Shown here: positions 3,922 through 25,214 of the stretch, piece after piece | Layout of the letters: the number at the start of each line of letters is the position of its first letter | Position numbering within the stretch: the first letter of the stretch is position 1 | Assembly (NCBI GenBank): GCA_027047735.1 | Contig: JALTUD010000013.1 | Span: 1 to 26,865 of the forward strand | DNA from: Flavobacteriales bacterium | Lineage (GTDB): Bacteria; Bacteroidota; Bacteroidia; Flavobacteriales_D; Parvicellaceae | Direction of reading: 5' to 3' | DNA length: 26,865 nucleotides | Program-made: the position numbers and the translations under genes | Notes under the pieces: generated by a model | What the model was told of the DNA's origin: nothing | Seen by the model: the letters and a program-made list of their open reading frames with translations, nothing else | Databases searched by the model: none

Positions 3922-3960
3922 AAAAAAGGAGAGCAGTATTTGTTCTCCTTTTTTGTTTTT
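3922..3960 (+). terminator. Rho-independent terminator
   Basis: AAAAAAGGAGAGCA-gtatt-TGTTCTCCTTTTTT stem followed by a T tract, about 30 bp after the 2336..3889 stop. Confidence 0.75.
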
Positions 3961-4439: not shown

Positions 4440-4450
4440 AAATTACATAT

Positions 4451-5710
4451 TTATAAAAACCAAGCTTCTCTTACTTTACTGAAAAACGATTCCCACGTCC
4501 AGTAATCGCCATCCCACGGAGGAAAGTAGATAAACGTAAGCCGAAGATTCATATAGATAAATAAGACAATAACCACTTTACTAAAAGTAATGATGTGTTT
4601 GTTTTGTACAGAAAAGAGAAGATTTAAAGTATAGGCAAGAGGCAAGGATAAAAAACTGTAATATTCGATAAAGGCTCGATGACCAAAGGCACTTCCAAAC
4701 CACCAACACCACCACGACGCAAAAACATAATAAGCCAACAATAAAATAACGGATATTTTTAGTGCTTCTTTGTTACCTTTTTTAAGCTGTAATATGATAC
4801 CAACCAAACTTAAAGTAAGTAGAGGGGAGTAGATTAACCAACCGTTCTGATGGCTGAAAAGGACCTTTATCAGTTTCGGATGCGACCAATTAAAACTTTC
4901 GCCCATAGCTCCGTATGAAAACATTAAATAATTGCCCGATACCTCGTGCCAATAGCTAATTTGTAATATCAAAAACAAGCCAAGAATCATAAGTCCGCCA
5001 AAGACATAAACATAATTTTTTTTGATATTTTCCCCTACTGTTTTCCATTCTTCTCTTGAGGTAGGGATAAGAAAAAGAAGACCAAAAGCATTGTAAGGCT
5101 TAATAACCAAAATCAATCCGGAAATCAATCCGATAAGTAGTGTGTATTTACGGAAATTGCTAGGTCTGACCTGCGTATAAGCATAAATTAAAAGAGCAAA
5201 AACAAAGAAATTATACACATGCGACATTCCGTCCTCAAAAACAGAGTAATAAAATAAATTTGTACCGATATAAATAATTGAAATAGTCCAAAAAGCAATG
5301 TTTTTATCGGGAAATCTTCGTTTTATTTCATTATACAAAATCACCAAAGCAACGGAAAGGTAAAAAGACGATGCTCCTAAAACGGCCACCGCATACGGTA
5401 GTGTGTAACCATCGGTTGCATAACCCAATAACCACGCAAAAAGATGAGCAACAAGAAAAAACGGAGCAATCAAAACAGCAATTCCAAAACTAAAAACACT
5501 CAATGGATTACCATTTTCCAACGTATGCACATATCTGCTTGGAGTAAACGAACCATCTACAAAAAAAGTAGGCAACCATTGGTAGTATCCCAAAGAATCG
5601 GTATTGTGATTCAGAGCAAGAACAAAATTTTCTTGATGAATGATTAATCCTAAAATAAGGTTAAACATGAAGAACACAAGAAACAAATAATTACTTTTTA
5701 TTTTAAACAT
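4451..5710 (-). CDS. Multi-pass membrane protein, GT-C-superfamily glycosyltransferase-like
   Basis: 419 aa with many hydrophobic segments. DSLGYYQWLP luminal motif after the first TM, then YYSVFEDGMSHVYNFF, LFSHQNGWLIYSPL and WWCWWFGSAFGHRAFIE, a pattern typical of Bacteroidota polyprenyl-sugar-dependent transferases. Confidence 0.65.
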   Translation of the reverse strand: MFKIKSNYLFLVFFMFNLILGLIIHQENFVLALNHNTDSLGYYQWLPTFFVDGSFTPSRYVHTLENGNPLSVFSFGIAVLIAPFFLVAHLFAWLLGYATDGYTLPYAVAVLGASSFYLSVALVILYNEIKRRFPDKNIAFWTISIIYIGTNLFYYSVFEDGMSHVYNFFVFALLIYAYTQVRPSNFRKYTLLIGLISGLILVIKPYNAFGLLFLIPTSREEWKTVGENIKKNYVYVFGGLMILGLFLILQISYWHEVSGNYLMFSYGAMGESFNWSHPKLIKVLFSHQNGWLIYSPLLTLSLVGIILQLKKGNKEALKISVILLLAYYVFASWWCWWFGSAFGHRAFIEYYSFLSLPLAYTLNLLFSVQNKHIITFSKVVIVLFIYMNLRLTFIYFPPWDGDYWTWESFFSKVREAWFL

Positions 5711-5825: not shown

Positions 5826-5867
5826 AAAGAAAATAGTTGTTAACTAACTTTTTAAAGATATTGCTTA

Positions 5868-6007
5868 GGGCGTTCCCATTACGGCATAAAAAAGCAATTC
5901 CGTTTTACTACACTACTTTTCAACGCCGTAAAGGTCGGGCTATCCACTATATCTTTTGCCCTCCAAAAGGAGGGAGGGCAAAAGGATGCCGTTCCTATCC
6001 CTAACGC
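5868..6007 (+). ncRNA. Flavo-1-like structured motif (core of copy B)
   Basis: Closest to the recalled consensus: GGTCGGGCTATCCACTATATCTTTT...AAAAGGATGCCGTTCCTATCCCTAACGC. Not model-verified. Confidence 0.5.
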
Positions 6008-6096
6008 GAGTCTGTCTAAAAACCTAATTTACAATAAAATTACACGTTGATTATCAGTGTTTAAGAGTTATGTTTCTTTGTTTTTTAGACTGTCTG
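6008..6096. mobile_element. Possible MITE-like insert with imperfect 15-bp terminal inverted repeats
   Basis: Left end GAGTCTGTCTAAAAA vs reverse complement of right end CAGACAGTCTAAAAA (12/15). It interrupts the repeat where copy D is contiguous. Confidence 0.4.
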
Positions 6097-6485
6097 AAGC
6101 AGGTCAGTGCAAAGAAAACGGATTTTTTCTTTAGACGATGAAAAATTCCTTTGTATATACTCATAATAATAAATTTATGAATCTTTCTTTTTTCCAAATA
6201 GTTCATTGCATTGAGCAAATCCCTAGCTAAGGAAATAAAAAATAAATAAGAATACTAAAAACATTTTATATCGTTTTTTTAGAAGATAAAACATATTAAT
6301 TATCAATGAAGTATTTAGATGTAATTAAAATTGTGCTAGACTAACACAAATACACATTTTGTCTATTCATAGCGAAAATGTTTACGGATTCAATGTAATA
6401 ACAGATTGGAAAAGCATATAACTACTCAAAAATAAAGACAAATGGATAAAAAAATATACTTTTACTTTTTTGTAAAATTGATATT

Positions 6486-10656: not shown

Positions 10657-10678
10657 TACCAATTAAATGTAAATCAAT

Positions 10679-10712: not shown

Positions 10713-10789
10713 GTTTTTAGTAGATTATCCTTAATTCCGCAAGTGATTTCGTTGTGAAAAGTCAAACTGCATATTATTATATTTAGAGC

Positions 10790-11679: not shown

Positions 11680-12735
11680 ATGAAAAGAATTTTACTTTGG
11701 ATGATTTTAGTGCCTATGGTATTGGATGCTCAAATTACCGTCACAAAAAACAACTTTCCTTCGAGTGGGGATGAATATATTTATAGTCTGGCAAGTACAA
11801 ACGGAGTAGATGTTTCTACTACGGGAGCAAATGTGATTTGGGATTACTCGTCGTTGTCGCCTAATGTGTTTGATACTGCAAAATATGTAAGTGTAACTTC
11901 TACACCTTTTGCTTATCAATTTTATTTTAACAATCAGTTTTTATATCCGGATTATAAAGCAAACTACGCGATTAAAGGACGTGATTTGAATGCGTTTAAT
12001 CAAGTGAATATTACCGATGTTTTTCAATTTCATAAAAAGAAAAACAATGCTTTGCAGATGGTGGGATTCGGGGCGAATATAAATGGCGTTCCTGCTTCAA
12101 TTAAGTATGATACTATTGACCAATTATATCCGCTTCCGTTGACTTTTGGAGTGAGTGATTCTACTTCGGCTTATTACTTATTGGATGTACCTAATATGGG
12201 AACGTATGGACAATGGTTGAGGAGAAAAGTTGAGGTGGATGGTTGGGGAGATTTAACGACTCCGTATCAAAATTATCCGCAAGCTCTTCGTGTGAAAACG
12301 ACACTTTATCAAAGGGATACATTAAAAACGGAACAACCTGTTTCTTTGCCGGGAATTGCTTTTGATCGTCCGATTCAATATACGTATGAGTGGTTTGTTT
12401 TGGGGGTTGGTGTTCCTGTTTTAAGTGTTACCGAACAAGCCGGGCAGATTACCAATGTTAAATATATTGATGTAAACACGTCCGGAATTGCATCTGAATT
12501 TACTGATTTGAAACTTCGTGTTTTTCCTAATCCTTCGAGTGATTTTGTGAGGATTGATACTGAAATTAAAAATGGTATGATGAAGGTTTTTTCGTTAAAT
12601 GGTAAAGTTGTTTATCGGGGAAAAGTAAAATCTTACTTGGATGTTTCGGAGTGGAGAGCAGGGAATTATGTAATTACTGTTGAAGAAGAACAACTAGGAA
12701 AGAAAGGATTTGTTTATTTTCAAAAGATAGATTAA
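11680..12735 (+). CDS. T9SS type-A CTD secreted protein
   Basis: Signal peptide ending LDAQ; C-terminal LRVFPNPSSD...KVFSLNGK...DVSEWRAGNYVI. Confidence 0.85.
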   Translation: MKRILLWMILVPMVLDAQITVTKNNFPSSGDEYIYSLASTNGVDVSTTGANVIWDYSSLSPNVFDTAKYVSVTSTPFAYQFYFNNQFLYPDYKANYAIKGRDLNAFNQVNITDVFQFHKKKNNALQMVGFGANINGVPASIKYDTIDQLYPLPLTFGVSDSTSAYYLLDVPNMGTYGQWLRRKVEVDGWGDLTTPYQNYPQALRVKTTLYQRDTLKTEQPVSLPGIAFDRPIQYTYEWFVLGVGVPVLSVTEQAGQITNVKYIDVNTSGIASEFTDLKLRVFPNPSSDFVRIDTEIKNGMMKVFSLNGKVVYRGKVKSYLDVSEWRAGNYVITVEEEQLGKKGFVYFQKID

Positions 12736-13061
12736 TGACGATAGCAGAAGCTCAAAAGATTGTTGATGATTGGATAAAGACGTATGGTGTTCGTTATTTT
12801 TCGGAACTGACGAATATGGCGATGTTGACAGAGGAAGTGGGAGAGGTTGCTCGGATTATTGCCAGGCGGTATGGTGAGCAATCGGAAAAGGAGTCGGATA
12901 AAGGAAAGGACTTGGGTGATGAATTGGCGGATGTGCTTTTTGTGTTGATTTGTTTGGCAAATCAAACGGGAGTGGATTTGGAACTAGCGATGAAAAAGAA
13001 TTTGGATAAGAAAACAAAACGTGATGCCGTAAGGCATTTGCAAAATGATAAATTGAAATAA
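12735..13061 (+). CDS. MazG-like nucleotide pyrophosphohydrolase
   Basis: LTEEVGEVAR...ELADVLFVL acidic motif pair; TAATG stop/start overlap with the upstream gene. Confidence 0.9.
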   Translation: MTIAEAQKIVDDWIKTYGVRYFSELTNMAMLTEEVGEVARIIARRYGEQSEKESDKGKDLGDELADVLFVLICLANQTGVDLELAMKKNLDKKTKRDAVRHLQNDKLK

Positions 13062-13118
13062 GAGATTTGATGATTTAAGTTTGGATAAATGAAGGTTCTT
13101 TTAAGTTTTGTTTGGTTG

Positions 13119-13486
13119 TTTTTTTATCGTCTAAGAATACTAAAACTCGCTTTTTTAGTTCTCATTCCGTCCGCGTTAGGGATTGGTATCCCTAACGTGT
13201 ATAAAAAGAGCACCATAAAATGTTTTTATTTCCTTTATCCATCTTCAAAAAATCTTTCCATAGCGGGTGCTATGCAAAGATTTTTTTCATCGTCTAAAGA
13301 AACTAAAACTCATTTTCTTACCGCTATTTTTACACACGTTAGGGATAGAACGGCGTGTTTGAACTCCTTTTGTGTTGTTGCACTTATGCAATACAAAAGA
13401 GTGAGTAGTGATAGCCCGACCATTACGGCGTTAAAAAGTAATGTAGTGCAACGAAATTGCTTTTTTATGCCGTAATGGGAACGCCC
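13119..13486 (-). repeat. Composite structured repeat, copy C (core 13336-13486; 161-bp hairpin 13187-13347; junction palindrome 13174-13197; half-arm ~13119-13184)
   Basis: Aligns to copies A and D over the whole length. 21-bp terminal arms match 20/21. Confidence 0.93.
13336..13486 (-). ncRNA. Flavo-1-like structured motif (core of copy C)
   Basis: Same two-hairpin core as copies A, B and D. Family assignment from memory only. Confidence 0.45.
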
Positions 13487-13512
13487 AAAATAATATTAAA
13501 AACGAGAAGAAT

Positions 13513-14037
13513 ATGTTTGATTTTTTTAAGCGAAAAAAACGAAAAACTCAAGTAGATTTAACCCTTGAAACATTGACGGTGGGGGCTACTTTTGAGTATG
13601 ATTTGAAAACGTGGGTAGTAAAGGAAGTGTATGTCTATTTGTGGGAAGATGGTTTGAAGACGAGGGAGTATAAGGCTAGTGACGGGGCTTCTTATTTCTT
13701 TTTGGTAGTGAATAATGATGGAGTGGTAATGGTGAGTAAACCGGTGTCGTTGAAGTTGGTGGCTCCTGATTTTAAACCGGATGTATTGAGAGATGAAACG
13801 GTGCCGGAGGTGGTTGTGTTTGAGGGTAGAGAGTACGAATTAAAAAAGGAAAATTTTGGTTCTTATCAACGAATTGGAACGGATAATTGGTCGGAATTAA
13901 CGGCGTGGATGTATTGGGATAAGGAAGAACATTTTATTTGTTTTGAGCGTTGGAGTAAGTTTGAGTTTGAGGCTCATAAAGGGAGAAAGATTAATCCGTT
14001 TGAGATTGATAATTTAATGCCCGGTGATGAAGATTAG
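13513..14037 (+). CDS. DUF4178-like protein
   Basis: 174 aa. LTLETLTVGA...W.VKEVY.Y.W...TREY and P.VV.FEG.EY.L.E pattern recalled for DUF4178. Confidence 0.6.
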   Translation: MFDFFKRKKRKTQVDLTLETLTVGATFEYDLKTWVVKEVYVYLWEDGLKTREYKASDGASYFFLVVNNDGVVMVSKPVSLKLVAPDFKPDVLRDETVPEVVVFEGREYELKKENFGSYQRIGTDNWSELTAWMYWDKEEHFICFERWSKFEFEAHKGRKINPFEIDNLMPGDED

Positions 14038-14119
14038 GTGTTGGGGTGCTAAACTCTCATACTTTTGGAAGAAATGATACGAACGACAGTAAAAATGTTG
14101 CAAACGGAGATACTTGTCA

Positions 14120-14150
14120 TTGATTTAGGAAGGCTTTCTTTGTAATTTTG
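14120..14150 (+). promoter_or_regulatory. Promoter for the type-B CTD/PorP/OmpA cluster
   Basis: TTG-N20-TAATTTTG, about 50 bp upstream of the start. Confidence 0.55.
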
Positions 14151-14202
14151 TGAGTTATACCATTTAAACATTGAAATGGTATTATAGATAAATTCATTGA
14201 TT

Positions 14203-17200
14203 ATGAAAAAAATAAATTTCTACCTCTTGTTAACGACCTTGTTTTTAGGGGTTGGAGTAAATGCTCAAGGGATATACTTTGTTACGGATTCTACCGATAG
14301 TGGTAGCGGAAAGACTTTACGAAATGCCTTGGCGTCTAATGCTGATACGATTGTAATTGATGTGAAGGGTACTTTGGAATTAACCAGCTCATTGGTTTTG
14401 ACTAAAGATGTGGTTATATTAGGTCCTTCGGCTAAGCACTTTACGATAAATCCTTGGCAAATAACTGATGTTGATGGTCTTTTTAAATTTAATGGTCATA
14501 AATTGACGTTATCGGGGGTTCGGATTTCGGGAGGTGGTTATAATTCTTCGGTTCCTATTCTTCATATACATAACGCAAATAATGCTGATACTGTTCGTGT
14601 GATAGATTGTTTGTTTGAAAATACTGTTTTGCAAAACGGAAGTGGTTCGGTTCTTAATTATAATGTTGCTTTATTAAGTAAGCCAATTATTTTTTCTAGG
14701 TGTTCTTTTATTTCTGTTCGGGCTGATAATAATGGTGGGGCCTTTTATATAGCACAAGGAAAAGGAGCAGAGGTGTATAATTGTACGTTTAATGCTTGTA
14801 CCACGACATGGGGACAGGGCGGGAGAGCCGGTGCAATTTATATGTCAGGAGGAGATTTAACTTTGATTAATAATACCTTTTATATGAATAGCGATGATAG
14901 TGATGCTCATCATTTATATTTAGCAGGAAATTCGGTAAATTTGATTAATAATATTTTTGAAGAGGGTTCTACTCAAAACCTTATTAAAACCGGGACGATA
15001 GTTGCGGATTATTATCATAATAATTTTATTAGTAGTTATCTAACGGGGGCGGGTATTTCTTATGGTTTTACAGAAAACACTGCATCGGGAATATCAACTC
15101 CTTTAATTGAAGATGGTTTGGGACTTAAATATTTTTCACTTCCTGCCGGTAGTCCATGTATAGATACGTATTTGGGTTCTAATCCAAAAGTTTTAAGTCA
15201 AAAATATGACCAAAGACGAAGTTGGAGGAAGATGAAATCGGACATTGCCAATAGTTCTTATAGCATCGATGCCGGGGCAGTTGAATACTCGCCTTTTACC
15301 GTTACCAGTGCAGACCCTAACAATTCACCAGGAGGAATAAAGTCTGTTTTTTCAAGGTTAAACTCTTCACCCGTTTTTGGAAACAAAGCTATCGTTTTTG
15401 AAATTCCGACAAGTGATTTGCCTGCAGATATGAATATTGGACAGGATACTTTGGTAATTGATTATTCTGTTGCCGACCTAATTATTAATGGTTTTTCTCA
15501 GTCCGGTAGTGTTGTGGCGGGACCGGGTATAGATAGTACAAGTGTAACTTCTGCAACTATTCCAATTGTTATTAATGGAAATAATACTCATGGAAGTATT
15601 ATAGAAAATAGAGGGGCTAATGTTTTTATAGCAGGTGTAGATGTTATAAACGCTATTTCTTCTGGAGGAATTAAAGGGGTAGGTATTAATTTTACTGGTT
15701 ACAATTGTAGTATTGAAGGTTGTCACATTGGGGTGAATAGTATAGGAGAGTACGGAAGTAATACAAAAAACACCTACGGAATAACAGTTCCTCCGGGTAC
15801 TCAAGGGCTTTCAATAGGAGTAAATAATTATTATAATAATTTTTTAATGCATGTTTCTAGGAATATTATTTCGGGGAATGATTCTGCACAGGTGGAAAGT
15901 CTAACAGGAGGTGTAATAAAAAGAAATTTTATCGGGTTAAATGGTACAGGTACATCGGTAATAAACACCCCTTTTGCTAAAGGGGTTGTATTAGGTTCAG
16001 TTGATGCATATGTTGGTCTTTTTGGAGGAAAAAAACACGAAGGTAATTATGTAGCAGGGCAGGATAGTGCGTGCAAACTATATAATATGCAGGAAGTTCG
16101 TTCAAATGTTGTTGGATTTTTGTATGATAAAGTAGGTATAGCATCAAATAATACAGGGATTAAAATTGAGAATGGTTACGATGCAAAAATTATAAATAAT
16201 AGAATTGGAAATGTAACGAACGGAAATGCTTTATATTTATTAAATATAAAAGGTAATAATTCATTTCTTTATCCTGAACAAAATTCCGTAATTGCATTTA
16301 ATAAAATTGGGATAACTCTTAATAGACAATCTGCTGCAATAAATGGTTCCGGAATAAAAATATTATCGAATAGAGGTTCTGATGGAAATGGAGGTCATAT
16401 TTCTGATGCAAGGTTTCGAAAAATTCACCACAATGTTATTGCAAATTGTAACAGAGGGTTGGATTTTGATTTGTCATTGTTTCATCTTTATGATCCTAAT
16501 TCAGGTAATTACATTCCTGTCCCCTCTCTTTCTGTACCTTTTTCTGATTCAGTATATCGTAATGTTATAGGTTTTGACACTATTAACAATAATTCCTTTT
16601 CCAACGGCACGGGAATCTACATTGATTCAGGTGTACAAGCAATAACATTTTCTAGAAATATTATAGCAAACAATACAACAGCAGGTGTTCAAATTGCCGG
16701 AGTTGATAGTACGGAATATATCCATTTTTATAGAAATAAAATATTTAACAATGGTGGAGCAACGGGGCTAGGGATAGATTTGGATGATAATGGCACTACA
16801 AATTTAATTGGAAATAAACCTTATAGTAATGATAGTGTAGTACCACCTACACTAAGTTCTTCGATATATTGTCAAGGAGATTCTAAAGTTAAATTGGGTG
16901 TGAAGTTGTTTATTGAGGATTCGACTAGGTTTTACCGCATGGACTTTTATAAAACAGATTCTGACGGACAAGAAGGAAAAATCTTTTTAAAAGATACAAT
17001 GTTTGCTCCAAATACTCTTTCTCTAGGAAATAATATAGATACTTTATCTTTTATGGCAACATTTATTGCTATTAATGATTCGATAGTAGCAACGTTAACT
17101 CAATTGGATACAGCAACAATTGAGAATTATGGGTATTTAGATACGTTACTGGTGGCTTCAACTTCAGAATTTAGTAATTATTCAGTGATAAGGAATTACA

Positions 17201-19629
17201 GCCCTTCGATTGTAACTCCTTCGGGAGTTTGTGATGGGCAACAAATAATAATTCAAATTGCTGATGCGGGAACGATTACAAATTTTATGATAGATAATGT
17301 TTCTCAATTAAATAACCCGGCTCATTATACATTAACAACTGGACAAACATCTATAACTGTTAGTGTTGTTTCAGATTCGTTAGGATGCTCAGATAGTTTT
17401 ACTACTTCTTTATCCGTAAATCCACTACCAAATGTTACAGCAAATATTTTTAATAACAGAGATACAATTTGTCAGGGAGATAGTGCTGTTCTAATTGGGG
17501 TTCCGTATAATTCGACAAATGGTCAATGGAAGGTTGATTCTACATCATTTACAGATACGGTTGTATTTCCCGGAAACACTACAAAATATATATATATATT
17601 TACTGATGGAAACGGGTGTTCAAATAAGGATTCCGTTGTTGTAACGGTTAATCCATTACCGAATGCAATATTAGTTTCAGATTCAGTAGTTTGTTATGGT
17701 AATACTATTGATTTATCAGGTTTAGTTTCGTCAGTAATTCAAGTAGGAGAAACTTCTTATTGGTATAATGAGAGTGATGCTACAAGTACCCCACTAATAG
17801 CACAAACTATAATTATGTCGCAAGATAGTTCTTTTGTATATCAAGTAACAGACGTTAGTTCGGGTTGTATTAATCAAGATACGATTAATATTTTGGTTAA
17901 TTCATTACCGAATGTATCTGCTGGTATGGATTCTTCAATTTGTGGATCGGGAGATATTTATTTAAGTGGTTTGAATGGAATTACGCCGACTACAGGAATT
18001 TGGTACGATATAACGATGACTAATTTTATCAATAGCACTAATGTAGTTTCTGTTATATCAGATACAAGTTTTATATATCGAGTAACAGACGGAAATGGAT
18101 GTACTAACCAAGACACGGTAGATATTTTTGTAAACTCATTGCCTAATGTTTCAGCCGGACAAGATTCAATAATATGTGGATTAGGGACGATAAACCTAAT
18201 GGGGTTAATAGGAGTAAATCCATTAAATGGTACATGGTATGATAATACAATGAGTAATACAATACCTAACCCTGTTTCAGTTTCTTTAAATACAAGTTAT
18301 ATCTATAAGGTAATAGGTGTGGATGGTTGCATGAATCAAGATACTGTAGATATTTTTGTAAATCCATTGCCCAATGTTTCAGCTGGACAAGATTCGTCAA
18401 TATGCGGAATGGGAACTATAAATTTAAATGGGTTAATAGGAGTTACCCCATCAAATGGCACATGGTATGATACTACAATGATAAGTATTGCAAATAATAA
18501 TATTAATGTAGTTTCAGACACAAGTTTTATATATCAAGTAACAGCAGGAAACGGTTGTACTAATCAAGATACAGTAGATATTTTTGTAAATCCAAAGCCG
18601 ATATTAACGGTTAATTCAACCACTCCTGATAATTGTTCGGATGGAAGTGGAGAAGTAGTATTATTAACCACTTCGGGGACACCATCATACAGTTATAGCA
18701 TAGATGGAGCAACTTATAATCTCAATAATGTTTTTAGTGGACTTCAAGGGGGACAGAGCTATACATTTTATACTATAGATGATAATAATTGTTCAGACAC
18801 ATTAGCAATATATGTTCCTGTCGGTACATCAACTCCACCCTTGTCACCATCTTTAATCACACCTATCAAAATTTGTCAAGGATACAAAGAAACAATAACA
18901 GATACAATTAGTACAAATGCAAATTATGCACATACTTTTATTTTTTATGACTTTCCTGATGAAATAAATGTTAATTCAACAAATAACGCTGTTTTAATAC
19001 CGGAATCATTAAACGGAGTAGATTCAATTGTTGTTGTAGCTACCAATACAGACGGATGTACAAATAGCACTACAATAACAGATATTGATTTTACAGAAAA
19101 TAATCTACAAACTTCGCCAATCAATAACATTTGCCAAGGAGATAATCACACATTTGATGTTTGGGCTACGGGAGTTCCAGATAGTTTGTTGTGGAGTACA
19201 AACGGAACAGGTAGTGGAGAACAGGAAGACCAAGGTTCATTTACCATAAACAATTTAACGGATAACGAGGTTTATATAGCTGTAAAAGAGAATGATTGTT
19301 GGTTTTATGATACGATAAGTGTTACCTTTGCTATCGACTGTGAAGAAACCGTAACTAATGCTTTTCAACCAGATGGAGATATAGAAGAAAATTCTTTTTT
19401 CTATTTGGATGATGAACATGTTAACCCCGACCTATGGGAAAATACAGTTACTATTTACAATCGTTGGGGAGATATCGTGTTTAAAGAACAAAACTACGAT
19501 AACAAAACCATCGTTTGGAAAGGTAAAGGTCTTACCCGGGTAGATTTACCTGAAGGAACATACTACTATGTGTTGGATGTTCCGGAAATTTCGTACTCAA
19601 AAAAAGGTTGGGTATATTTAGATAGATGA
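14203..19629 (+). CDS. Large T9SS type-B CTD (gliding-motility-associated C-terminal domain) surface protein: CSLREA-like N-terminus, parallel beta-helix repeats, Ig/PKD-like repeats
   Basis: ATG 14203 (MKKINFYLLL signal peptide) preferred over TTG 14197. VTDSTDSGSGKTLRNAL; LPAGSPCID...DQRR...DAGAVE (choice-of-anchor-Q-like); FNNGGATGLGIDL; C-terminal IYNRWGDIVF...LPEGTYYYVL...GWVYLDR. Confidence 0.9.
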   Translation: MKKINFYLLLTTLFLGVGVNAQGIYFVTDSTDSGSGKTLRNALASNADTIVIDVKGTLELTSSLVLTKDVVILGPSAKHFTINPWQITDVDGLFKFNGHKLTLSGVRISGGGYNSSVPILHIHNANNADTVRVIDCLFENTVLQNGSGSVLNYNVALLSKPIIFSRCSFISVRADNNGGAFYIAQGKGAEVYNCTFNACTTTWGQGGRAGAIYMSGGDLTLINNTFYMNSDDSDAHHLYLAGNSVNLINNIFEEGSTQNLIKTGTIVADYYHNNFISSYLTGAGISYGFTENTASGISTPLIEDGLGLKYFSLPAGSPCIDTYLGSNPKVLSQKYDQRRSWRKMKSDIANSSYSIDAGAVEYSPFTVTSADPNNSPGGIKSVFSRLNSSPVFGNKAIVFEIPTSDLPADMNIGQDTLVIDYSVADLIINGFSQSGSVVAGPGIDSTSVTSATIPIVINGNNTHGSIIENRGANVFIAGVDVINAISSGGIKGVGINFTGYNCSIEGCHIGVNSIGEYGSNTKNTYGITVPPGTQGLSIGVNNYYNNFLMHVSRNIISGNDSAQVESLTGGVIKRNFIGLNGTGTSVINTPFAKGVVLGSVDAYVGLFGGKKHEGNYVAGQDSACKLYNMQEVRSNVVGFLYDKVGIASNNTGIKIENGYDAKIINNRIGNVTNGNALYLLNIKGNNSFLYPEQNSVIAFNKIGITLNRQSAAINGSGIKILSNRGSDGNGGHISDARFRKIHHNVIANCNRGLDFDLSLFHLYDPNSGNYIPVPSLSVPFSDSVYRNVIGFDTINNNSFSNGTGIYIDSGVQAITFSRNIIANNTTAGVQIAGVDSTEYIHFYRNKIFNNGGATGLGIDLDDNGTTNLIGNKPYSNDSVVPPTLSSSIYCQGDSKVKLGVKLFIEDSTRFYRMDFYKTDSDGQEGKIFLKDTMFAPNTLSLGNNIDTLSFMATFIAINDSIVATLTQLDTATIENYGYLDTLLVASTSEFSNYSVIRNYSPSIVTPSGVCDGQQIIIQIADAGTITNFMIDNVSQLNNPAHYTLTTGQTSITVSVVSDSLGCSDSFTTSLSVNPLPNVTANIFNNRDTICQGDSAVLIGVPYNSTNGQWKVDSTSFTDTVVFPGNTTKYIYIFTDGNGCSNKDSVVVTVNPLPNAILVSDSVVCYGNTIDLSGLVSSVIQVGETSYWYNESDATSTPLIAQTIIMSQDSSFVYQVTDVSSGCINQDTINILVNSLPNVSAGMDSSICGSGDIYLSGLNGITPTTGIWYDITMTNFINSTNVVSVISDTSFIYRVTDGNGCTNQDTVDIFVNSLPNVSAGQDSIICGLGTINLMGLIGVNPLNGTWYDNTMSNTIPNPVSVSLNTSYIYKVIGVDGCMNQDTVDIFVNPLPNVSAGQDSSICGMGTINLNGLIGVTPSNGTWYDTTMISIANNNINVVSDTSFIYQVTAGNGCTNQDTVDIFVNPKPILTVNSTTPDNCSDGSGEVVLLTTSGTPSYSYSIDGATYNLNNVFSGLQGGQSYTFYTIDDNNCSDTLAIYVPVGTSTPPLSPSLITPIKICQGYKETITDTISTNANYAHTFIFYDFPDEINVNSTNNAVLIPESLNGVDSIVVVATNTDGCTNSTTITDIDFTENNLQTSPINNICQGDNHTFDVWATGVPDSLLWSTNGTGSGEQEDQGSFTINNLTDNEVYIAVKENDCWFYDTISVTFAIDCEETVTNAFQPDGDIEENSFFYLDDEHVNPDLWENTVTIYNRWGDIVFKEQNYDNKTIVWKGKGLTRVDLPEGTYYYVLDVPEISYSKKGWVYLDR
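17896..18585 (+). repeat. Three tandem intragenic 76-78-aa Ig/PKD-like repeats
   Basis: VN(S/P)LPNVSAGxDSxICG...WYD...NQDTVDIF starts at 17896, 18130 and 18358, with the next VNPKP at 18586 (periods 234, 228, 228 nt). Confidence 0.9.
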
Positions 19630-21101
19630 TTATGAAAAAGATTTATATTAAATACATAAGTTTATTATTGGTGCTCTTTTTTATAAAGAAAATAGGTGCT
19701 CAGGGTTTTAGTGCTTTACCAGATACTATTTGTTCTAGAGGGATGGTGACGCTAACATACACCCCTACCGGACAAGTATCTTCGGAAATAAAATTATATA
19801 GAGATAATATTCTTATTAATAATACGAGTAATATTTTTTCGATGTACTCATATTCAGATTATCCATTAAACAATACAGGAGGGACAATAACGATAACGTA
19901 TAGTATCGAAGTAACTATGACGGATGGTACAGTTATAACAGATAATGCTTCTGTTGTTGTATATCCCGCACCACAATTATCCGTAGCTGATTTTATAGTT
20001 TCGGATGTTAGTTGTAATGGTAATCAAAATGGTTCTATTACCCCAAATATTGATTATTTTACAGGAAATAATAGCGGAGCTCCTTTTTTGTATTATTCAA
20101 ATACTTTTTCAAATACATCTTACACTCTCGTAACAACAACGAACTTTAATCTAAGCGGACTCGCAGGGGGCGATTATTATTTTTTTATAAGGGAAAACAA
20201 TCAACTAACTTGCAATAGTGATACGATTACAATCACCGTAAATGAACCCCAGAGTATAAGTTATGATTCCGTGAATATTATAGACGATAACTGTGGACAA
20301 CATTCAGGAATGGTTATTTTTCATGGGTTAACGGGAGGTGTTTCACCTTATGTCTTTACTGATGGTTCAACAACAACATATGATAATATAAACGATAGCG
20401 TGATAATAAACCTAACTAATAATTTTTATCAATTCACAATAATAGATGCCAATAATTGTAGCTATAATCTATTTCCTCCCAACAATCAAAATGCTTTTAT
20501 TGTAAGCGACTCAGGAAACGGAGATGAACCTGAAACACCAAATCTACCTCAGGAACAAATAGTTTGTGAAAACCAATCCTTGCAATTAAACGATAATAGC
20601 GGATTGCCACATTTTTATTATTTTTCAGGATCTGACAGTACATTGTTTTATTCGCCCAATTCTACCATTAATATTCAAAACCAGACTTTATTACAAAATG
20701 ACTCTCTCTATGTTTATGTTATAGAAACAACAGGAACGTCAGCGGGATGTATTAGCGATGTTGTAGCCATAGACTTAATACAAAAAGATTGTTCTTTTAA
20801 CCCCGATAGCGTAGATGTAACCTATAATGCTTTTAGTCCAAATGACCAACAAAATCCCGAAAACAATACTTTTGTAATTGACTTAGAGTATATTGATGAC
20901 CCAAACGTTACAGATGTAAATGTAACCATTTATAACCGATGGGGAGACATCGTCTATCAAACAGAAAATTATGATAATAAGAACGGGTGGAACGGGGGTA
21001 CGTTTAATGAAAGTGCACTTCCGGAAGGAACGTATTACTACATCATCAATGTAAATTCAAAAAAATACGTCAAATCAGGATGGGTCTATTTAGATCGATA
21101 A
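19626..21101 (+). CDS. Second T9SS type-B CTD protein with SprB-like repeats
   Basis: ATGA overlap with the upstream gene; signal peptide; VSCNGNQNGSI...GLAGGDY and DDNCGQHSG SprB-type repeats; IYNRWGDIVY...LPEGTYYYII...GWVYLDR. Confidence 0.9.
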   Translation: MIMKKIYIKYISLLLVLFFIKKIGAQGFSALPDTICSRGMVTLTYTPTGQVSSEIKLYRDNILINNTSNIFSMYSYSDYPLNNTGGTITITYSIEVTMTDGTVITDNASVVVYPAPQLSVADFIVSDVSCNGNQNGSITPNIDYFTGNNSGAPFLYYSNTFSNTSYTLVTTTNFNLSGLAGGDYYFFIRENNQLTCNSDTITITVNEPQSISYDSVNIIDDNCGQHSGMVIFHGLTGGVSPYVFTDGSTTTYDNINDSVIINLTNNFYQFTIIDANNCSYNLFPPNNQNAFIVSDSGNGDEPETPNLPQEQIVCENQSLQLNDNSGLPHFYYFSGSDSTLFYSPNSTINIQNQTLLQNDSLYVYVIETTGTSAGCISDVVAIDLIQKDCSFNPDSVDVTYNAFSPNDQQNPENNTFVIDLEYIDDPNVTDVNVTIYNRWGDIVYQTENYDNKNGWNGGTFNESALPEGTYYYIINVNSKKYVKSGWVYLDR

Positions 21102-21112
21102 AAACGAATAAA

Positions 21113-22045
21113 ATGAAATATCTTAGCTCAATAATGATTCTTGTTTCTTTGTGTTTTTTCTTCAAAAAAGGCTGGGCACAACAAGACGCACTTTATAGTC
21201 AATATATGTTTAATCCCTTGGCGTTAAACCCTGCTTATGCAGGAACTAGAAATACACTTAGTGGTGTTATGTTGTACCGAAACCAATGGGTAGGAATGAG
21301 CGGAGCTCCGCAAACAGCAAGTTTGGCGGTTCATAGTCCCATAAAAGGTAAAAAATTTGCTTTAGGATTAAACCTAATGAGCGAATCCATCGGTCCAACA
21401 CAAAACAATGTCTTTTTAGGTACCTATGCCTATCACGTAAACGCAGGCAAAGGTAAACTTTCTTTTGGGCTTCGTGGCGGATTTTATTCCACAAGTATAG
21501 ATTACAATAAATTGCATTATGTAAATGAGCAAGGAAAAGTAAGAGGAAGGTATCAAAAATCTTCCGCGAATTTTGATTTTGGAATGTACTATCACACTGA
21601 TAAGTTTTATGGAGGTATTGCCATTTCACATATAGGAAATCCAAAAGTAAAGTTTAATGGTAGTGATGCTTTATTGCCTTTACAAGCACATTACGTGGCG
21701 TTTGTCGGTAACGCCTTTGTGATTAATGAAAATCTGGTAGTAAAACCTTCCGCAGTTGTAAGATATACAAATGGAGCACCTTTCAATTACGATATAAATA
21801 CGAGTATTTTATTCCAAAAAGTACTATGGTTGGGAGTGTCTTATCGCTCTAATACCTCAAAAATTAACGAAGCAAGTTTGGTTTTTGTAACGGAGTACAA
21901 CATAACAGAATCATTTAGATTAGGGTACAGCTATGACTTTAATTTAGGAGCGATAAAACGTTACAATTCCGGTTCGCATGAAATCTTTTTGGGTGCAGAT
22001 TTATACATCAAAAGAAAAACATCGGTGTCACCAAGATTTTTATAA
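21113..22045 (+). CDS. PorP/SprF-family T9SS membrane protein
   Basis: ATG 21113 (MKYLSSIMILV signal peptide) preferred over 21080. QQDALYSQYMFNPLALNPAYAG, YRNQWVG, LGYSYD and SGSHEI motifs. Confidence 0.93.
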   Translation: MKYLSSIMILVSLCFFFKKGWAQQDALYSQYMFNPLALNPAYAGTRNTLSGVMLYRNQWVGMSGAPQTASLAVHSPIKGKKFALGLNLMSESIGPTQNNVFLGTYAYHVNAGKGKLSFGLRGGFYSTSIDYNKLHYVNEQGKVRGRYQKSSANFDFGMYYHTDKFYGGIAISHIGNPKVKFNGSDALLPLQAHYVAFVGNAFVINENLVVKPSAVVRYTNGAPFNYDINTSILFQKVLWLGVSYRSNTSKINEASLVFVTEYNITESFRLGYSYDFNLGAIKRYNSGSHEIFLGADLYIKRKTSVSPRFL

Positions 22046-22067
22046 ATTACTTTAGAAAACAAGGAAA

Positions 22068-24407
22068 ATGAAGTTAATAAAAAAACTAAATAAAATAGTG
22101 TTGCCAATGCTATTGTCTTTATGGGTAACACAATTTATTGCTCAATCAAATGAGCAAAAAAAATATACAAAAATTACAGAATATGAAGTGTTACCGGTTT
22201 TAGGAGTCAACACAAGTTACAGTGAGTTTAGTCCGGTCTTATTGGGGCAAGAATTTATCTTTACCTCAGACAGAGAATACGATATTAAAACATTGGGAGA
22301 AGGAAATTGGAAAAAAACAAATCATTTTAATCTATTTAAGGCAACGTTTAAAGATATTTTTGCTGACACCATACAATTAGTTCGGATACGGATTTTTGAT
22401 AACAATCTATTAATGGATGACCACGTCGGGCCTATAGCTTTCAACAAATCGGGAGATGAAGCAATAATTACCATTGTCAGCCACAAAGAAGACAAACCCT
22501 TTGCTAAATCCACCGCCTATCCGCAATTATACAAAACACAAAAAATAAAAGGGCGTTGGAAAAATATCGAAAAACTTCCCTTCAATCAAAAAGGAGTATC
22601 AATGGGACAAGCCTGTTGGTCGCCGGATGGGAAGAAACTTTATTTTGTTCAAAATACAAGTCCCGGAACAGGAAAACATGGAAACGGAAATATTGTTTAC
22701 ATAGAACGTAACGGCGACTCTTGGGGTAAAATAACCAAGGTAAAGGAATTAAACACCAAAGAAAATGAAGCCTTTCCCTATCTTATTGATGATAAAATTT
22801 ATTTCGCTTCAAATCGAAGCGGAGGACTCGGAGGTTGGGATTTATACGTTAGCCAATGGAAAAACGGAAAGTGGTCAGAACCTCAAAACCTTGGCAAAAC
22901 AATCAATACAGAAGCAGATGAATTTGCTATGATATTTAACGTTAATAAAGAAAGTGGCTATTTTTGTTCAAACAGACCGGGAGGTAAAGGACAAGATGAT
23001 ATTTATAAATTCCATAAAATCGAAAAAACACTTGTCGAAAATCAAGCGATTTCAGGAGTCTTAACATTTATGTATTTAGATGGAAAATCAACAGAAGGTT
23101 TGGAAGTAGGTGTATTTGACGATCAAGGAAATTTAATTACCAAAGCAACAGCTGATGCCAATGGAAAATTTGTATTCAAAAAATTACCGCAAGACAAAAA
23201 ATATATCTTTAAAATGTTAAACACCGATGAAGAGGTAGAAATGAACCTCAACGATGGTGAACTGATATTAATATCGAATAACAAAGGAGAGTTTGTCTTC
23301 AGAAAATTAAGTAGCAAAAGTGTCGGAACATTAGCCCTTATCGACGAAGAAGACTACGACCTTATCACGGGCGAAGGTGAACTAGGAGGACAATTTGTCT
23401 TTAAAAAATTAAAACATAAAAACCCCGAAGGTCTGGAAGTGTACTTAATAGACGAAGACGGAAACATTATACAAAAAACAACCACAGATAAATACGGAAA
23501 TTTTATTTTCAAAAAAATACCGCGAGGAGCAAATTATCTTATCAAATCACCCGAGGGAGAAGAATTTGATATTCTTATCTTCAATAAAAAAGAAGAACTC
23601 ATCGCCACCCTAACCAAGGGCAAAGACGGTAAGTTTGTGTACCGAAAACTAAAATCTCAAACAGGAAATTACAACTTGGACGTAGAGGAAGAAGATTTAG
23701 TATTCATCGAAAAAAGAATTGCCATAACCGGACAATTCGTTTACCAAAAATTAAAGACCGAGCAAGTAGGCGTATTAGGAGTTGAGGTGCACGATGAAAA
23801 CCAACTGATGCAAAAAACAACATCAACCCCGGAGGGTGATTTTATGGCACTCAACCTAAAACCACGTGATTTATACAAATTTCGAATCGAAGACGAAAGC
23901 AAATTAAAAGAAGAACCACAACTAAACATCACCAATCGCCATCACCAAACCGTAGCTGTTATTAACAGAGAAGACGACGGATTTTACATTTACTCAAAAA
24001 CTAAAGGACTAACCGTTGGAGATTCAGTAATTAATGTTGAGGTCATTCAAATCGAACAAACCGATATACAAGACACCCAAATCATCTATTACGAAAATAA
24101 TGAATACACACTAACCCCCGACGACAAAGAAATATTAGACCAACGCATAAAAGAGCTAAAAGAAAACCCAAAATTACTAATCCGTGTAGAATCCTATGCC
24201 TCAACCAAAGGGTCAGAAGAATACAACAGAAAATTAACCCAAAAACGAAAATCCGAAGTCATAAAATACCTCACTCAAAAAGGAGTACATCAATCACGCA
24301 TAAAAGCACTCGCCTACGGAGAAGAGCGAACACAAGAAGAACAAGACGAAGAACAACAACGACTAAGCCGAAAAACCGAACTAACACTATTTACACTAAA
24401 AAAATAA
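22068..24407 (+). CDS. PD40-propeller + prealbumin/CnaB-like repeats + OmpA-like C-terminal domain protein (PorE-like)
   Basis: EFSPV...FTSDR, YFASNRSGGLGGWDLY and YFCSNRPGGKGQDDIY PD40 repeats; repeated EGLEV.L.D..GN.I....TD..G.F.FKK.P; C-terminal KGSEEYNRKLTQKR...V..YL...G.....I.A.AYGE. Confidence 0.85.
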   Translation: MKLIKKLNKIVLPMLLSLWVTQFIAQSNEQKKYTKITEYEVLPVLGVNTSYSEFSPVLLGQEFIFTSDREYDIKTLGEGNWKKTNHFNLFKATFKDIFADTIQLVRIRIFDNNLLMDDHVGPIAFNKSGDEAIITIVSHKEDKPFAKSTAYPQLYKTQKIKGRWKNIEKLPFNQKGVSMGQACWSPDGKKLYFVQNTSPGTGKHGNGNIVYIERNGDSWGKITKVKELNTKENEAFPYLIDDKIYFASNRSGGLGGWDLYVSQWKNGKWSEPQNLGKTINTEADEFAMIFNVNKESGYFCSNRPGGKGQDDIYKFHKIEKTLVENQAISGVLTFMYLDGKSTEGLEVGVFDDQGNLITKATADANGKFVFKKLPQDKKYIFKMLNTDEEVEMNLNDGELILISNNKGEFVFRKLSSKSVGTLALIDEEDYDLITGEGELGGQFVFKKLKHKNPEGLEVYLIDEDGNIIQKTTTDKYGNFIFKKIPRGANYLIKSPEGEEFDILIFNKKEELIATLTKGKDGKFVYRKLKSQTGNYNLDVEEEDLVFIEKRIAITGQFVYQKLKTEQVGVLGVEVHDENQLMQKTTSTPEGDFMALNLKPRDLYKFRIEDESKLKEEPQLNITNRHHQTVAVINREDDGFYIYSKTKGLTVGDSVINVEVIQIEQTDIQDTQIIYYENNEYTLTPDDKEILDQRIKELKENPKLLIRVESYASTKGSEEYNRKLTQKRKSEVIKYLTQKGVHQSRIKALAYGEERTQEEQDEEQQRLSRKTELTLFTLKK

Positions 24408-24410
24408 TTT

Positions 24411-24560
24411 GGGCGTTCCCATTACAGCATAAAAAAGCGGTTTCGTTGCACTACACCACTTTTTAATGCCGTAATGGTCGGGCTATCACTACTCACTCTT
24501 TTTGCCCTCAAAAGGAGGAGGGCAAAAAGGAGTTCAAACACGCCGTTCTATCCCTAACGT
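24411..24560 (+). ncRNA. Flavo-1-like structured motif (core of copy D)
   Basis: Same core as copies A, B and C. Family assignment from memory only. Confidence 0.45.
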
Positions 24561-24776
24561 GGGGCATGTGAGTGCAAAGAAAACGGAGTTTAGTTTTCTT
24601 AGACGATGAAAAATTCTTTTGCATAGCACCAGCTATGGAAAATAATTTTGAAGAAGGATAAGGAAAATAAAACCGTTTTGTTGTGCTCAGATGTTCCATG
24701 TTAGGGATACAATCCCTAACGCGTGTAAAAAGAGCGGTAAGAAAATGAGTTTTAGTTTCTTTAGACAATGAAAAAA
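24411..24776 (+). repeat. Composite structured repeat, copy D (core 24411-24560; 161-bp hairpin 24549-24709; junction palindrome 24700-24720; half-arm 24711-24776)
   Basis: Reverse-complement counterpart of copies A and C. Begins 4 nt after the OmpA-domain gene stop. Confidence 0.93.
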
Positions 24777-24815
24777 GTCCTCTGATAAATCAAGAAAAAA
24801 ATAAACATCTAAACC

Positions 24816-25214
24816 ATGAATAAAATAGAACATATAGGCATAGCCGTCAAAGATTTAGAACAATCTATAAAACTATTTAGTAATTTACTGAATACCCAAC
24901 CTTACAAAAGAGAAAAAGTAGAAAGCGAAGGAGTAGAGACGGTCTTTTTCCAAATAGGAGAAACCAAAATAGAACTCTTAGGAGCAACAAACGAAGAAAG
25001 CCCCATAGCCAAATTCATACAAAAAAAAGGAGAAGGAATACACCATATAGCTTTTGACGTAACCGATATAAATAATGAAATAAAACGTCTGCAAGAACAA
25101 AATTTCACGGTACTGAACACAACGCCAAAACAAGGAGCAGACAACAAAAAAATAGCCTTTTTACACCCTAAATCTACAAATGGAGTGCTAACTGAACTCT
25201 GTCAAGAAGAGTAA
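24816..25214 (+). CDS. mce: Methylmalonyl-CoA epimerase (VOC family)
   Basis: KIEHIGIAV, KIELL, IAKFIQKKGEGIHHIAF and GADNKKIAFLHPKSTNGVLTELCQE motifs. Confidence 0.95.
   Translation: MNKIEHIGIAVKDLEQSIKLFSNLLNTQPYKREKVESEGVETVFFQIGETKIELLGATNEESPIAKFIQKKGEGIHHIAFDVTDINNEIKRLQEQNFTVLNTTPKQGADNKKIAFLHPKSTNGVLTELCQEE

Follow-up and report, generated by a model that had tools for sequence, protein, structure and literature searches.

Copies of a Flavo-1-bearing hairpin repeat lie in kilobase-scale zones of strand-asymmetric silent-site composition in a hydrothermal-vent flavobacterium

The window analyzed here, a stretch of 26,865 nucleotides (contig JALTUD010000013.1) from the genome of a hydrothermal-vent flavobacterium (G000), contains four copies (A to D) of a dispersed repeat. 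From 11.7 to 26.9 kb its genes are all on a single strand. Genes were taken as simple ORF calls (1964 in the genome), and the labels of those in the window were checked with Pfam. An earlier note on this DNA had marked a "core" in each copy and had proposed that the codon third positions of the flanking genes are skewed according to the orientation of this core. The features are listed below; the folding strand is the strand that gives the more stable hairpin of the repeat, "halo" denotes a flanking zone of skewed third positions, upstream and downstream refer to the folding strand, and G3/C3 gives the numbers of G- and C-ending codons.

3290..3889, + strand: halo upstream of copy A, comprising the final 200 codons of the gene at 2336-3889 (G3/C3 34/9)
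3960..4453, folding (functional) strand +: repeat copy A, core of the earlier note on the - strand at 4347-4445
4271-4368, + strand: Flavo-1-like module of copy A (32.8 bits, below the gathering score)
5858..6157, folding strand -: repeat copy B, core on the + strand at 5865-5949
5929-6021, - strand: Flavo-1 match of copy B (62.7 bits, above the gathering score)
11680..13061, + strand: halo upstream of copy C, a T9SS-tail protein gene and a MazG gene
13119..13497, folding strand +: repeat copy C, core on the - strand at 13404-13492
13328-13425, + strand: Flavo-1-like module of copy C (26.6 bits, below the gathering score)
13513..15100, + strand: halo downstream of copy C, a DUF4178 gene and the first ~900 bp of a CHU_C protein gene
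22500..24407, + strand: halo downstream of copy D, inside an OmpA-family gene (GC3 skew -0.18 to -0.88, AT3 skew +0.13 to +0.52)
24397..24787, folding strand -: repeat copy D, core on the + strand at 24405-24493
24472-24570, - strand: Flavo-1-like module of copy D (27.4 bits, below the gathering score)
24816..25214, + strand: halo upstream of copy D, a Glyoxalase_4 (mce-like) gene (G3/C3 10/25, AT3 skew +0.51)

Copies C and D are mutually inverted, and hand counts had indicated opposite biases around them. Recounting the third positions on the + strand gave the same picture. G3/C3 was 43/3 in the MazG gene (12735-13061), exactly as before, and 64/6 in the DUF4178 gene (13513-14037; ~63/6 by hand), while the last 136 codons of the OmpA-family gene (22068-24407) and the mce-like gene (24816-25214) again gave 4/35 and 10/25, respectively. 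For GC3 skew, the MazG and DUF4178 genes rank in the top 0.3% of the 1964 ORF calls, and the OmpA and mce-like genes in the bottom 5-7%; the latter two are in the top 0.4-4% for AT3 skew. The 5' part of the OmpA gene was indeed balanced (23/17 in its first 136 codons, 74/169 over the whole gene), and the fading of the bias with distance appeared within this gene as a smooth change towards copy D, from -0.04 to -0.88 for GC3 skew and from +0.18 to +0.52 for AT3 skew. In the T9SS-tail protein gene, GC3 skew climbed from +0.38 to +0.72 towards copy C, and it was +0.87 in the MazG gene; the first ~900 bp of the CHU_C protein gene (1810 aa) showed values of +0.42 to +0.60, which fell to about +0.1 by 15.1 kb. 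The 100 codons ending left of copy A gave 21/4 (~22/4 by hand). The count for the 100 codons beginning to the right of copy B was reproduced as well (14/11 on the + strand), but it had been read as consistent in direction, whereas the rule predicts more C than G there, and we consider this flank as null.

The repeat family comprises 485 copies in 2.87 Mb, about one per 6 kb, dispersed among housekeeping genes in both orientations. Its copies each lie in a 1-2 kb zone in which silent sites of the folding strand favor G and T and those of the core strand, equivalently, C and A. A profile of third-position skew averaged over all copies oriented by the core, as the note had suggested, was strongly non-flat and dependent on orientation, with 187 and then with 485 copies. 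The core-oriented GC3 skew on the stronger side weakened from -0.38 in the immediate flank to about -0.19 at 1.1-1.25 kb, with -0.05 left past 3 kb; on the weaker side, it started at about -0.2 and decayed to ~0 by 1.5-2 kb. The decay noticed in the window thus holds genome-wide, over ~1-2 kb, and in the sense of the folding strand the halo is greater downstream of the hairpin than upstream. Genome-wide, the pattern far exceeded chance, the skew within 500 bp having the predicted sign for 92% of 148 elements in the first core set and for 85-86% of ~350 elements in the full family. It tracked the orientation of the element rather than the gene strand, since the core-oriented sign was equal on both gene strands (-0.35 and -0.49), also at 4-fold sites (-0.42 and -0.57). 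Codon positions 1 and 2 were scarcely shifted. The base pair that moved most was T/C of the core strand, with a shift in ln(C/T) of +1.06, versus +0.26 for ln(A/G). This shift was uniform over all 5' and 3' neighbor bases (0.88-1.19), with no neighbor-base motif, and GC4 rose from 0.30 to 0.41 on one side of the element. Better-preserved cores were associated with stronger halos.

We considered whether the opposite biases reflect an event between 14 and 22 kb, either an inversion or an ordinary switch of replichore (ter), as the note had offered as its alternative, or else repeat-to-repeat inversions that form a patchwork over the whole genome. Relatives do show a strong replication skew (~±0.3 GC3 in the element-free congener G002), and the mutual inversion of copies C and D is also in line with this explanation. 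Yet, the skew peaks at copies C and D instead of switching there, it forms smooth gradients within intact genes, and no gene flips with it, all genes from 11.7 to 26.9 kb being on one strand. Furthermore, no single sign change between long plateaus of opposite skew was found, and the pattern recurs at hundreds of elements whatever the baseline. In 46 long genes, the skew weakened from -0.386 proximally to -0.115 distally, with a gradient in 89% of them (p = 2e-8). The halo added to the replication baseline, amounting to -0.53, -0.42 and -0.24 at baselines of -0.26, 0 and +0.24. Skew autocorrelation fell to ~0 by 8-10 kb; neighboring genes on opposite strands were anticorrelated (r = -0.61), and same-strand neighbors changed sign. 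In G002, by comparison, the skew is uniform across 100 kb. The intra-gene gradients, the baseline independence and this uniformity refute the switch or inversion, which we regard as scarcely credible. A generic effect of gene ends on composition was likewise excluded, as none was seen away from elements.

Another possibility was that the elements insert preferentially into pre-existing skew, or that the flanks are under selection to be skewed, for instance as C-rich RNA that would serve Rho or as GT-rich DNA that would serve RecA. Rates that go up and down at a constant total resemble a fixation bias, and the rise of GC4 on one side would fit. However, G002 shows no kilobase-scale stretches in which the skew is inverted, and the halo is absent from its orthologues (-0.405 vs -0.126, p = 0.0018; -0.437 vs +0.036, p = 0.039). 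The relatives' orthologues of the genes in the halo upstream of copy C, including that of the MazG gene, are also without skew. Moreover, the halo overrides a baseline of either sign, and a selection of S~1 per silent site over ~1 kb, at ~500 sites and in any gene orientation, would be implausible. This makes the explanation very improbable. The halo is also present in the sister genome G005 and in the more distant congeners G001 and G006, whose hairpins and insertion sites differ. Taken together, the oriented meta-profile, the intra-gene gradients, the baseline independence, the recurrence in congeners and the element-free orthologues show that the elements themselves cause the halos.

The core turned out to be one cassette of the repeat family, made of GGGCGTTCCC, a variable hairpin and GGTCGGGCTATC. 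On the folding strand, a copy consists of a Flavo-1 motif, GATAGCCCGACC, the variable hairpin and GGGAACGCCCAAAT. The core as oriented in the note sits opposite the folding, Flavo-1-bearing strand. In 99.4% of the 485 copies, the G/T-rich strand formed the more stable hairpin, and its fold contained 811 G·U pairs, versus 35 in the fold of the opposite strand. As this ratio of 23:1 far exceeds the mutational asymmetry of ~3:1, the structure is selected on the folding strand. The stems vary with compensatory changes while the sequence of the hairpin foot is invariant, and the constraint on core and hairpin structure persists. The Flavo-1 RNA motif (Rfam RF01705) has been catalogued as a candidate sRNA without known function (Weinberg 2010, PMC2864571). 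It is modelled on the folding (G/T-rich) strand at all four window copies, in the same relative position, and copy B belongs to the family with 62.7 bits, as against a gathering score of 42. In the genome, at least 87 matches had E <= 0.001, the best scoring 60-68 bits, over the gathering cut-off. The GTTAGGG/CCCTAAC modules of the element resemble attC core sites, though the consensus GTTRRRY/RYYYAAC is broken at one position. Element orientation was not tied to the direction of replication, 60 elements lying with the replication baseline and 52 against it.

The G·U asymmetry is a classical mark of a folded RNA of Flavo-1 sense, although it reveals the folding strand of RNA and ssDNA alike. 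One explanation of the halos is outward transcription with R-loop formation. An RNA of Flavo-1 sense would run through the hairpin into the flank and leave the folding strand as the exposed non-template strand, which would gain C>T and A>G changes while the template is protected by transcription-coupled repair; the G+T excess would decay as transcripts terminate. This agrees with the strand on which Rfam models Flavo-1, with the greater halo downstream of the Flavo-1 sense and with balanced rises and falls in rate at a constant total, as expected of transcription-associated damage and coupled repair. Other systems are known to have a G+T excess on non-template strands and R-loops linked to GC skew (PMC3787257). 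Yet, a promoter within the element does not explain an upstream halo of equal sign, and a search by eye for Bacteroidetes-type promoters (TAnnTTTG/TTTG boxes) found no convincing or conserved one in the element. Two-thirds of the genes downstream would converge with such a transcript, and the amplitude equals or exceeds the entire replication skew, at ~500 sites. In F. psychrophilum, Flavo-1 matches occur in either orientation relative to transcribed regions, and many of them are not transcribed (PMC9723704). On balance, we find transcription a rather unlikely, though serious, candidate.

The note itself had suggested that the elements are oriented sites of strand-specific nicking, resection or unwinding, which expose one strand to deamination as ssDNA. 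An element-anchored, strand-specific process remains the best explanation, but the extra deamination was not supported as proposed. The direction of the bias, its kilobase scale and its dependence on orientation all fit additional C>U and A>Hx damage, and exposure would affect the strand able to fold into the hairpin. At equilibrium, this would predict a ~1.9-2.1-fold excess of T<->C differences near elements. The near/far divergence ratio between G000 and G005 was only 1.25 (CI 1.03-1.54) for T<->C, with 1.09 for A<->G and 1.04 for transversions, these estimates coming from a single genome pair under assumed compositional equilibrium and a fossil halo fitting the divergence about equally well. 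Total silent divergence was flat with distance from elements. In addition, the shift that cytosine deamination should lead is the weaker one (ln(A/G) rather than ln(C/T)). Damage to exposed ssDNA thus seems improbable as the source of the halos, and the flat silent divergence, together with the lack of a neighbor-base motif, argues against ongoing deaminase-like hypermutation.

A footprint of the past would also be compatible with the flat divergence. Intense strand-biased mutagenesis may have accompanied the spread of the elements before the split of G000 and G005, the halos slowly relaxing since then. All 8 element sites resolvable in both genomes are shared, so that none is informative as a presence/absence polymorphism to time halo formation, and at aligned sites both genomes show an equal halo. 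A relaxing halo should give divergence ratios of 1.33 and 0.89, both of which fall within the observed intervals. In contrast, G001 and G006 have halos at sites specific to their species, and halos also occur in G084, which belongs to another family, so that such an episode would need to have recurred in several lineages; cores and hairpins are still constrained, and better-preserved cores have the stronger halos. We therefore hold a fossil footprint to be quite improbable. The genome assemblies of the genus are all fragmented and of MAG type (G000 91% and G005 83% complete), in which repeats assemble poorly.

We tentatively favor, as a possibility short of an even chance, an element-anchored strand-asymmetric process that combines nicking or unwinding at the hairpin foot with repair tracts on one strand. 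The conserved foot would be the site of recurrent strand-specific nicking or unwinding, from which repair tracts of ~1 kb would extend along one strand in both directions. The strand excised and resynthesized in these tracts would be the complement of the folding strand, so that premutagenic changes of the A>G and C>T types on the folding strand would be fixed while those on the other strand would be erased. Transitions would be redistributed between the strands roughly 70:30, with a modest AT>GC gain and little increase in the total substitution rate. The equal sign of the halo on both sides of the element fits such excision tracts along one strand. Chi/RecBCD-type processing and double-strand-break resection were set aside by reasoning, as they predict the wrong strand or opposite signs on each side; Okazaki-priming and fork-barrier models were rejected because the halo appears whichever sign the replication baseline has. 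A search of G000 (91% complete) for multi-copy transposase ORFs and for a nickase found none; the sole multi-copy ORF family in this genome encodes ~92 aa and presumably lies inside the repeat. The element alone may not be sufficient to produce a halo, as G195 has Flavo-1 copies without one and G084 has only a moderate halo, at Flavo-1 copies. The contrast between G084 and G195, which are congeners, allows phylogenetic profiling for the responsible enzyme. More broadly, and with somewhat greater reserve, Flavo-1-type hairpins might be programmed sites of a strand-specific DNA transaction (a nick, unwinding or an R-loop) that redirects which strand's lesions become mutations over ~1-2 kb.

Bacterial strand skew is usually attributed to replication and, less so, to transcription. 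The halos represent a third source of skew, anchored on a repeat and locally strong enough to override the replication skew. At about one copy per 6 kb, the elements turn the genome into a skew patchwork, and origin/terminus prediction and codon-usage analyses are open to distortion by them. The widespread Flavo-1 motif gains a measurable footprint and an identified functional strand, and the elements offer a natural system for studies of strand-asymmetric repair or exposure directed from fixed sites over kilobases. If Flavo-1-type hairpins are indeed such programmed sites, dispersed repeats rather than replication set the silent-site composition of much of the genome, the elements form a new class of local "mutation-polarizing" element, and a first DNA-level phenotype can be assigned to an RNA motif without known function since 2010. 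In the open-access papers searched, we found no precedent for a local skew around bacterial repeats and no description of a repeat-anchored local mutation or repair footprint.

Several known systems share part of these properties. AID somatic hypermutation, APOBEC kataegis and diversity-generating retroelements (DGR) also produce kilobase-scale, strand-coordinated base changes from a defined site. Unlike these, the halo has no context motif and no raised divergence and combines A>G-type with C>T-type shifts; a reverse transcriptase (PF00078) was not found in G000, and one was found in G005. The transcription-linked asymmetry and R-loop GC skew near promoters (PMC3787257) resemble the halo in their one-strand G+T excess, their decay over ~1-2 kb and a little-changed total rate, but the halo ignores the orientation of flanking genes and occurs on both sides of the element. 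REP/BIME sequences with their RAYT, IS200/IS605-derived PATEs and integron attC sites are comparable to the element in their hundreds of intergenic copies, their invariant foot, their stems with compensatory changes and the functionality of one folded strand. The element differs from the REP/RAYT and IS200/IS605-derived families in that its orientation is not tied to replication and that no Y1/HUH transposase (PF01797) was found in G000 or G005 at their 91% and 83% completeness (it is present in G001, G003 and G006), and from attC in that its copies do not form cassette arrays. No compositional halo was found for the REP/BIME, PATE or attC families in the open-access literature searched, and we know of none elsewhere. 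The Flavo-1 RNA motif is contained in the elements, but as a single module within a composite DNA repeat that has another hairpin, and it is tied to a flanking mutational footprint that is not universal, G195 being without it. Replication skew is similar to the halo in that keto bases are enriched on one strand, most strongly at silent sites and independently of the gene strand, with a comparable magnitude (±0.3 GC3 skew in G002). The halo is distinguished from it by a scale of ~1 kb rather than that of a replichore, by its anchoring on a dispersed repeat instead of ori or ter, and by a sign that is equal on both sides of the anchor and adds to the baseline whatever the sign of the latter.

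The earlier note had claimed that the third-codon-position skew of four plus-strand genes flips with the orientation of the repeat copies beside them (copies A and C have their folding strand on +, copies B and D on -). All of its hand counts of G- versus C-ending codons could be reproduced, and its four gene names were upheld by Pfam:

12735-13061, + strand, MazG gene
13513-14037, + strand, DUF4178 gene
22068-24407, + strand, gene for a 779-aa protein with a C-terminal OmpA domain
24816-25214, + strand, gene for a Glyoxalase_4 (mce-like) protein

Among 1964 ORFs of the genome (G000; simple ORF calls from ATG to stop, at least 90 aa, taken greedily by length), the MazG and DUF4178 genes had a GC3 skew in the top 0.3%, and the OmpA and mce-like genes had a GC3 skew in the bottom 5-7% with an AT3 skew near the top. 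Along the OmpA gene, GC3 skew changed smoothly from -0.04 at the 5' end, reaching -0.88 over the 150 codons that adjoin copy D. Copies A and B, which point in opposite directions, both have the strong side of their halo (the zone of about 1-2 kb with silent sites enriched in G and T on the folding strand) over the gene that separates them (4451-5710), and the GC3 skew of this gene was nearly cancelled (+0.07). The count to the right of copy B (14 vs 11), which had been taken as weak support, was a null result, since the rule predicts more C than G there.

The gene-strand skews of adjacent genes were correlated with r = +0.60 on the same strand and r = -0.61 on opposite strands; the skew is a property of the DNA strand, not of the gene. 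Despite this correlation between neighbours, many contigs flip the sign of their skew within a few kb among same-strand genes. A stretch of uniform skew was observed at G000:C664:1-11094, where 19 small genes on one strand, in a layout that looks like a ribosomal-protein operon, had strand GC3 skews between +0.15 and +0.82; the stretch contains no element. It may exemplify skew linked to transcription or replication, for comparison with the halos.

The window is an entire contig of a 2.87-Mb assembly (718 contigs, 91% complete, GC about 35%), the DNA of which is present in hydrothermal-vent metagenomes. The genes that lie between the four named ones encode type IX secretion cargo and PorP/SprF. 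Five tandem units of 228-249 bp, 67-83% alike, were seen at 17614-18601 within an 1810-aa CHU_C (type IX secretion) gene, and downstream of it a second CHU_C protein, PorP/SprF and the OmpA-family gene form a typical gliding/T9SS adhesin cluster. At 10597-10788, weak Thr_leader-like Rfam matches under the gathering score, on both strands, overlap a 53-nt inverted match to 5762-5814; this may represent a further small repeat, or a terminator that works in both directions between convergent genes. The sole above-threshold Rfam match in the window was Flavo-1, a motif of Flavobacteria.

The 89-nt core by which the copies had been oriented occurs at 196 loci in G000 with unambiguous orientation, and the other repeats at skew peaks were the same element with a different hairpin. 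Read along the core strand, it generally consists of GGGCGTTCCC, some 55 nt of hairpin and GGTCGGGCTATC. With at most 2 substitutions accepted per foot, we counted 485 copies, one per ~6 kb, and a Flavo-1-like module follows 441 of the cores. The hairpin feet are invariant; the stems between them vary widely with compensatory changes, comprising many unrelated sequences with pairing kept, and many have a common loop type, CATATCGCTnnnGCGAAACG. The exact pattern had 407 occurrences in G000, 351 in its sister genome G005 and one in the congener G006, and was absent from 58 other genomes of the family. Given that neutral sites of G000 and G005 differ by about 26%, the likeness of the cores among paralogues and orthologues (93-100%) indicates that they are constrained or homogenised. 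The true copy number is probably above 485, because contigs tend to break at repeats. Many G000 contigs start or end with a 127-bp stretch that is also present in others, pointing to an assembly-graph overlap (k = 127). ORFs of 121 aa (4140-4505) and 128 aa (13089-13475; no Pfam match) lie wholly inside copies A and C, and a 16-member family of ~92-aa ORFs elsewhere in G000 is presumably inside the repeat too; such ORFs would be annotated by gene callers but are likely spurious.

Both strands of all 485 hairpins were folded, and the one opposite the core was the more stable in 99.4% of them (-35.9 vs -28.5 kcal/mol), with 811 G·U pairs compared with 35 on the core strand. This ratio (23:1) greatly exceeds the ~3:1 asymmetry of mutation, so the structure is selected on the strand opposite the core. 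It is also the strand on which Flavo-1 is modelled at each of the four copies in the window. Read in its functional direction, the element consists of Flavo-1, GATAGCCCGACC, the hairpin and GGGAACGCCCAAAT, in this order; in the flanks its own folding strand is rich in G and T, above all on the downstream side.

The dependence of skew on element orientation held genome-wide. With copies oriented by the core and all repeats masked (15.5% of the genome), the skew at third codon positions was not flat and decayed with distance on both sides. GC3 skew 5' of the core was -0.38 (0-250 bp), -0.27 (500-750 bp), -0.20 (1-1.25 kb), -0.10 (2-2.5 kb) and -0.05 (>3 kb); on the 3' side it dropped from -0.20 to about 0 by 2 kb, starting at -0.19 when counted from the end of the repeat block. 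AT3 skew mirrored this profile. The predicted sign was present within 500 bp of 85-92% of elements, all hairpin classes gave the halo, as did the 44 copies without the Flavo-1 module, and better-preserved cores had stronger halos.

In the control for gene strand, core-oriented skew was -0.35 in co-oriented and -0.49 in opposed genes (-0.42 and -0.57 at 4-fold sites), and no gene-end effect was observed in genes distant from elements. In the control for inversion, 89% of 46 genes of at least 1.8 kb abutting the 5' side had a within-gene gradient (-0.386 proximal vs -0.115 distal, p = 2e-8), whichever gene end was proximal. To control for replication, elements were grouped by the skew of their far flanks: at baselines of -0.26, 0 and +0.24, the halo was -0.53, -0.42 and -0.24, and negative in 100%, 92% and 87% of elements. 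Element orientation showed no tie to this baseline (60 vs 52).

The congener G002 has one core only in 229 kb, and all 5-kb bins of two of its 100-kb stretches share one sign (means -0.31 and -0.24). In contrast, the autocorrelation of strand skew in G000 was 0.73 at 0.5 kb and had dropped close to 0 by 8-10 kb. In 33 reciprocal-best orthologue pairs, the element-proximal part of the G000 gene had a skew of -0.405 on the 5' side vs -0.126 in the same part of the G002 orthologue (p = 0.0018), and of -0.437 vs +0.036 on the 3' side (p = 0.039). The MazG locus, which has an element in G000, showed no skew in the congeners G001 and G006, and its G3/C3 count was about 14/15 in orthologues of ten relatives vs 43/3 in G000.

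At 4-fold sites beside the element, C on the core strand rose from 0.14 to 0.31 and A somewhat, T fell from 0.35 to 0.21 and G from 0.17 to 0.11, and GC4 increased from 0.30 to 0.41. The shift in ln(C/T) was +1.06, uniform over all neighbouring bases (0.88-1.19), that in ln(A/G) was +0.26, and codon positions 1 and 2 hardly shifted. Divergence between G000 and G005 did not rise near elements over 38,017 aligned third positions, the near/far ratios being 1.25 for T<->C (CI 1.03-1.54), 1.09 for A<->G (0.87-1.39), 1.04 for transversions and 1.13 overall. The halo was equal in both genomes at aligned sites, and element sites were common to the two in 8 of 8 resolvable cases. At equilibrium, additional mutation of a single strand would require a ~2-fold T<->C excess, and a between-strand shift of C>T mutations alone predicts a ratio of ~0.55; the data reject both. 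A split of both transitions of about 70:30 between the strands, with ~1.4-fold more AT>GC changes, fits them, as does a fossil halo now relaxing. Against a single fossil episode, halos occur at species-specific sites in several lineages, cores are still constrained and the better-preserved ones have the stronger halos.

Our preferred mechanism, inferred like its polarity from base composition alone, is a nick or unwinding that recurs at the foot of the hairpin. Repair tracts of ~1 kb on one strand would start from this foot, fixing changes of the folding strand and erasing those of its complement. This model explains why both sides share one sign, why the skew decays with distance, why the total rate stays flat, why there is no neighbour-base motif and why the halo is independent of genes and replication. 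The main rival, outward transcription or R-loops from the element, accounts for the G·U signature and for the bias towards the downstream side. Yet it leaves the upstream halo unexplained, no promoter or transcript supports it, and many Flavo-1 hits of F. psychrophilum are untranscribed (PMC9723704). A check of G000 for Y1/HUH transposases, reverse transcriptases and multi-copy transposase ORFs gave no candidate enzyme for the favoured nick or unwinding. In the open-access literature searched, no account of bacterial skew halos anchored on repeats was found.

Every genome of the genus is a fragmented assembly. G005 is ~91-93% identical to G000 in DNA, and its 25 sampled cores gave the same profile. 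G001 and G006, only ~68-70% identical to G000, have Flavo-1 elements with different, shorter hairpins ending in GCCCAAA. Downstream of these, skew on the Flavo-1-sense strand was +0.34 (0-500 bp), +0.26 (500-1000 bp) and +0.17 (1-2 kb); the halo was weaker upstream, and 92% of elements were positive. In another family, G084 had a moderate halo (+0.22 to +0.26), and its congener G195, which also has many canonical Flavo-1 copies, had none. The footprint thus recurs among genomes but does not accompany Flavo-1 everywhere, and the contrast between these two genomes could serve to find the responsible factor.
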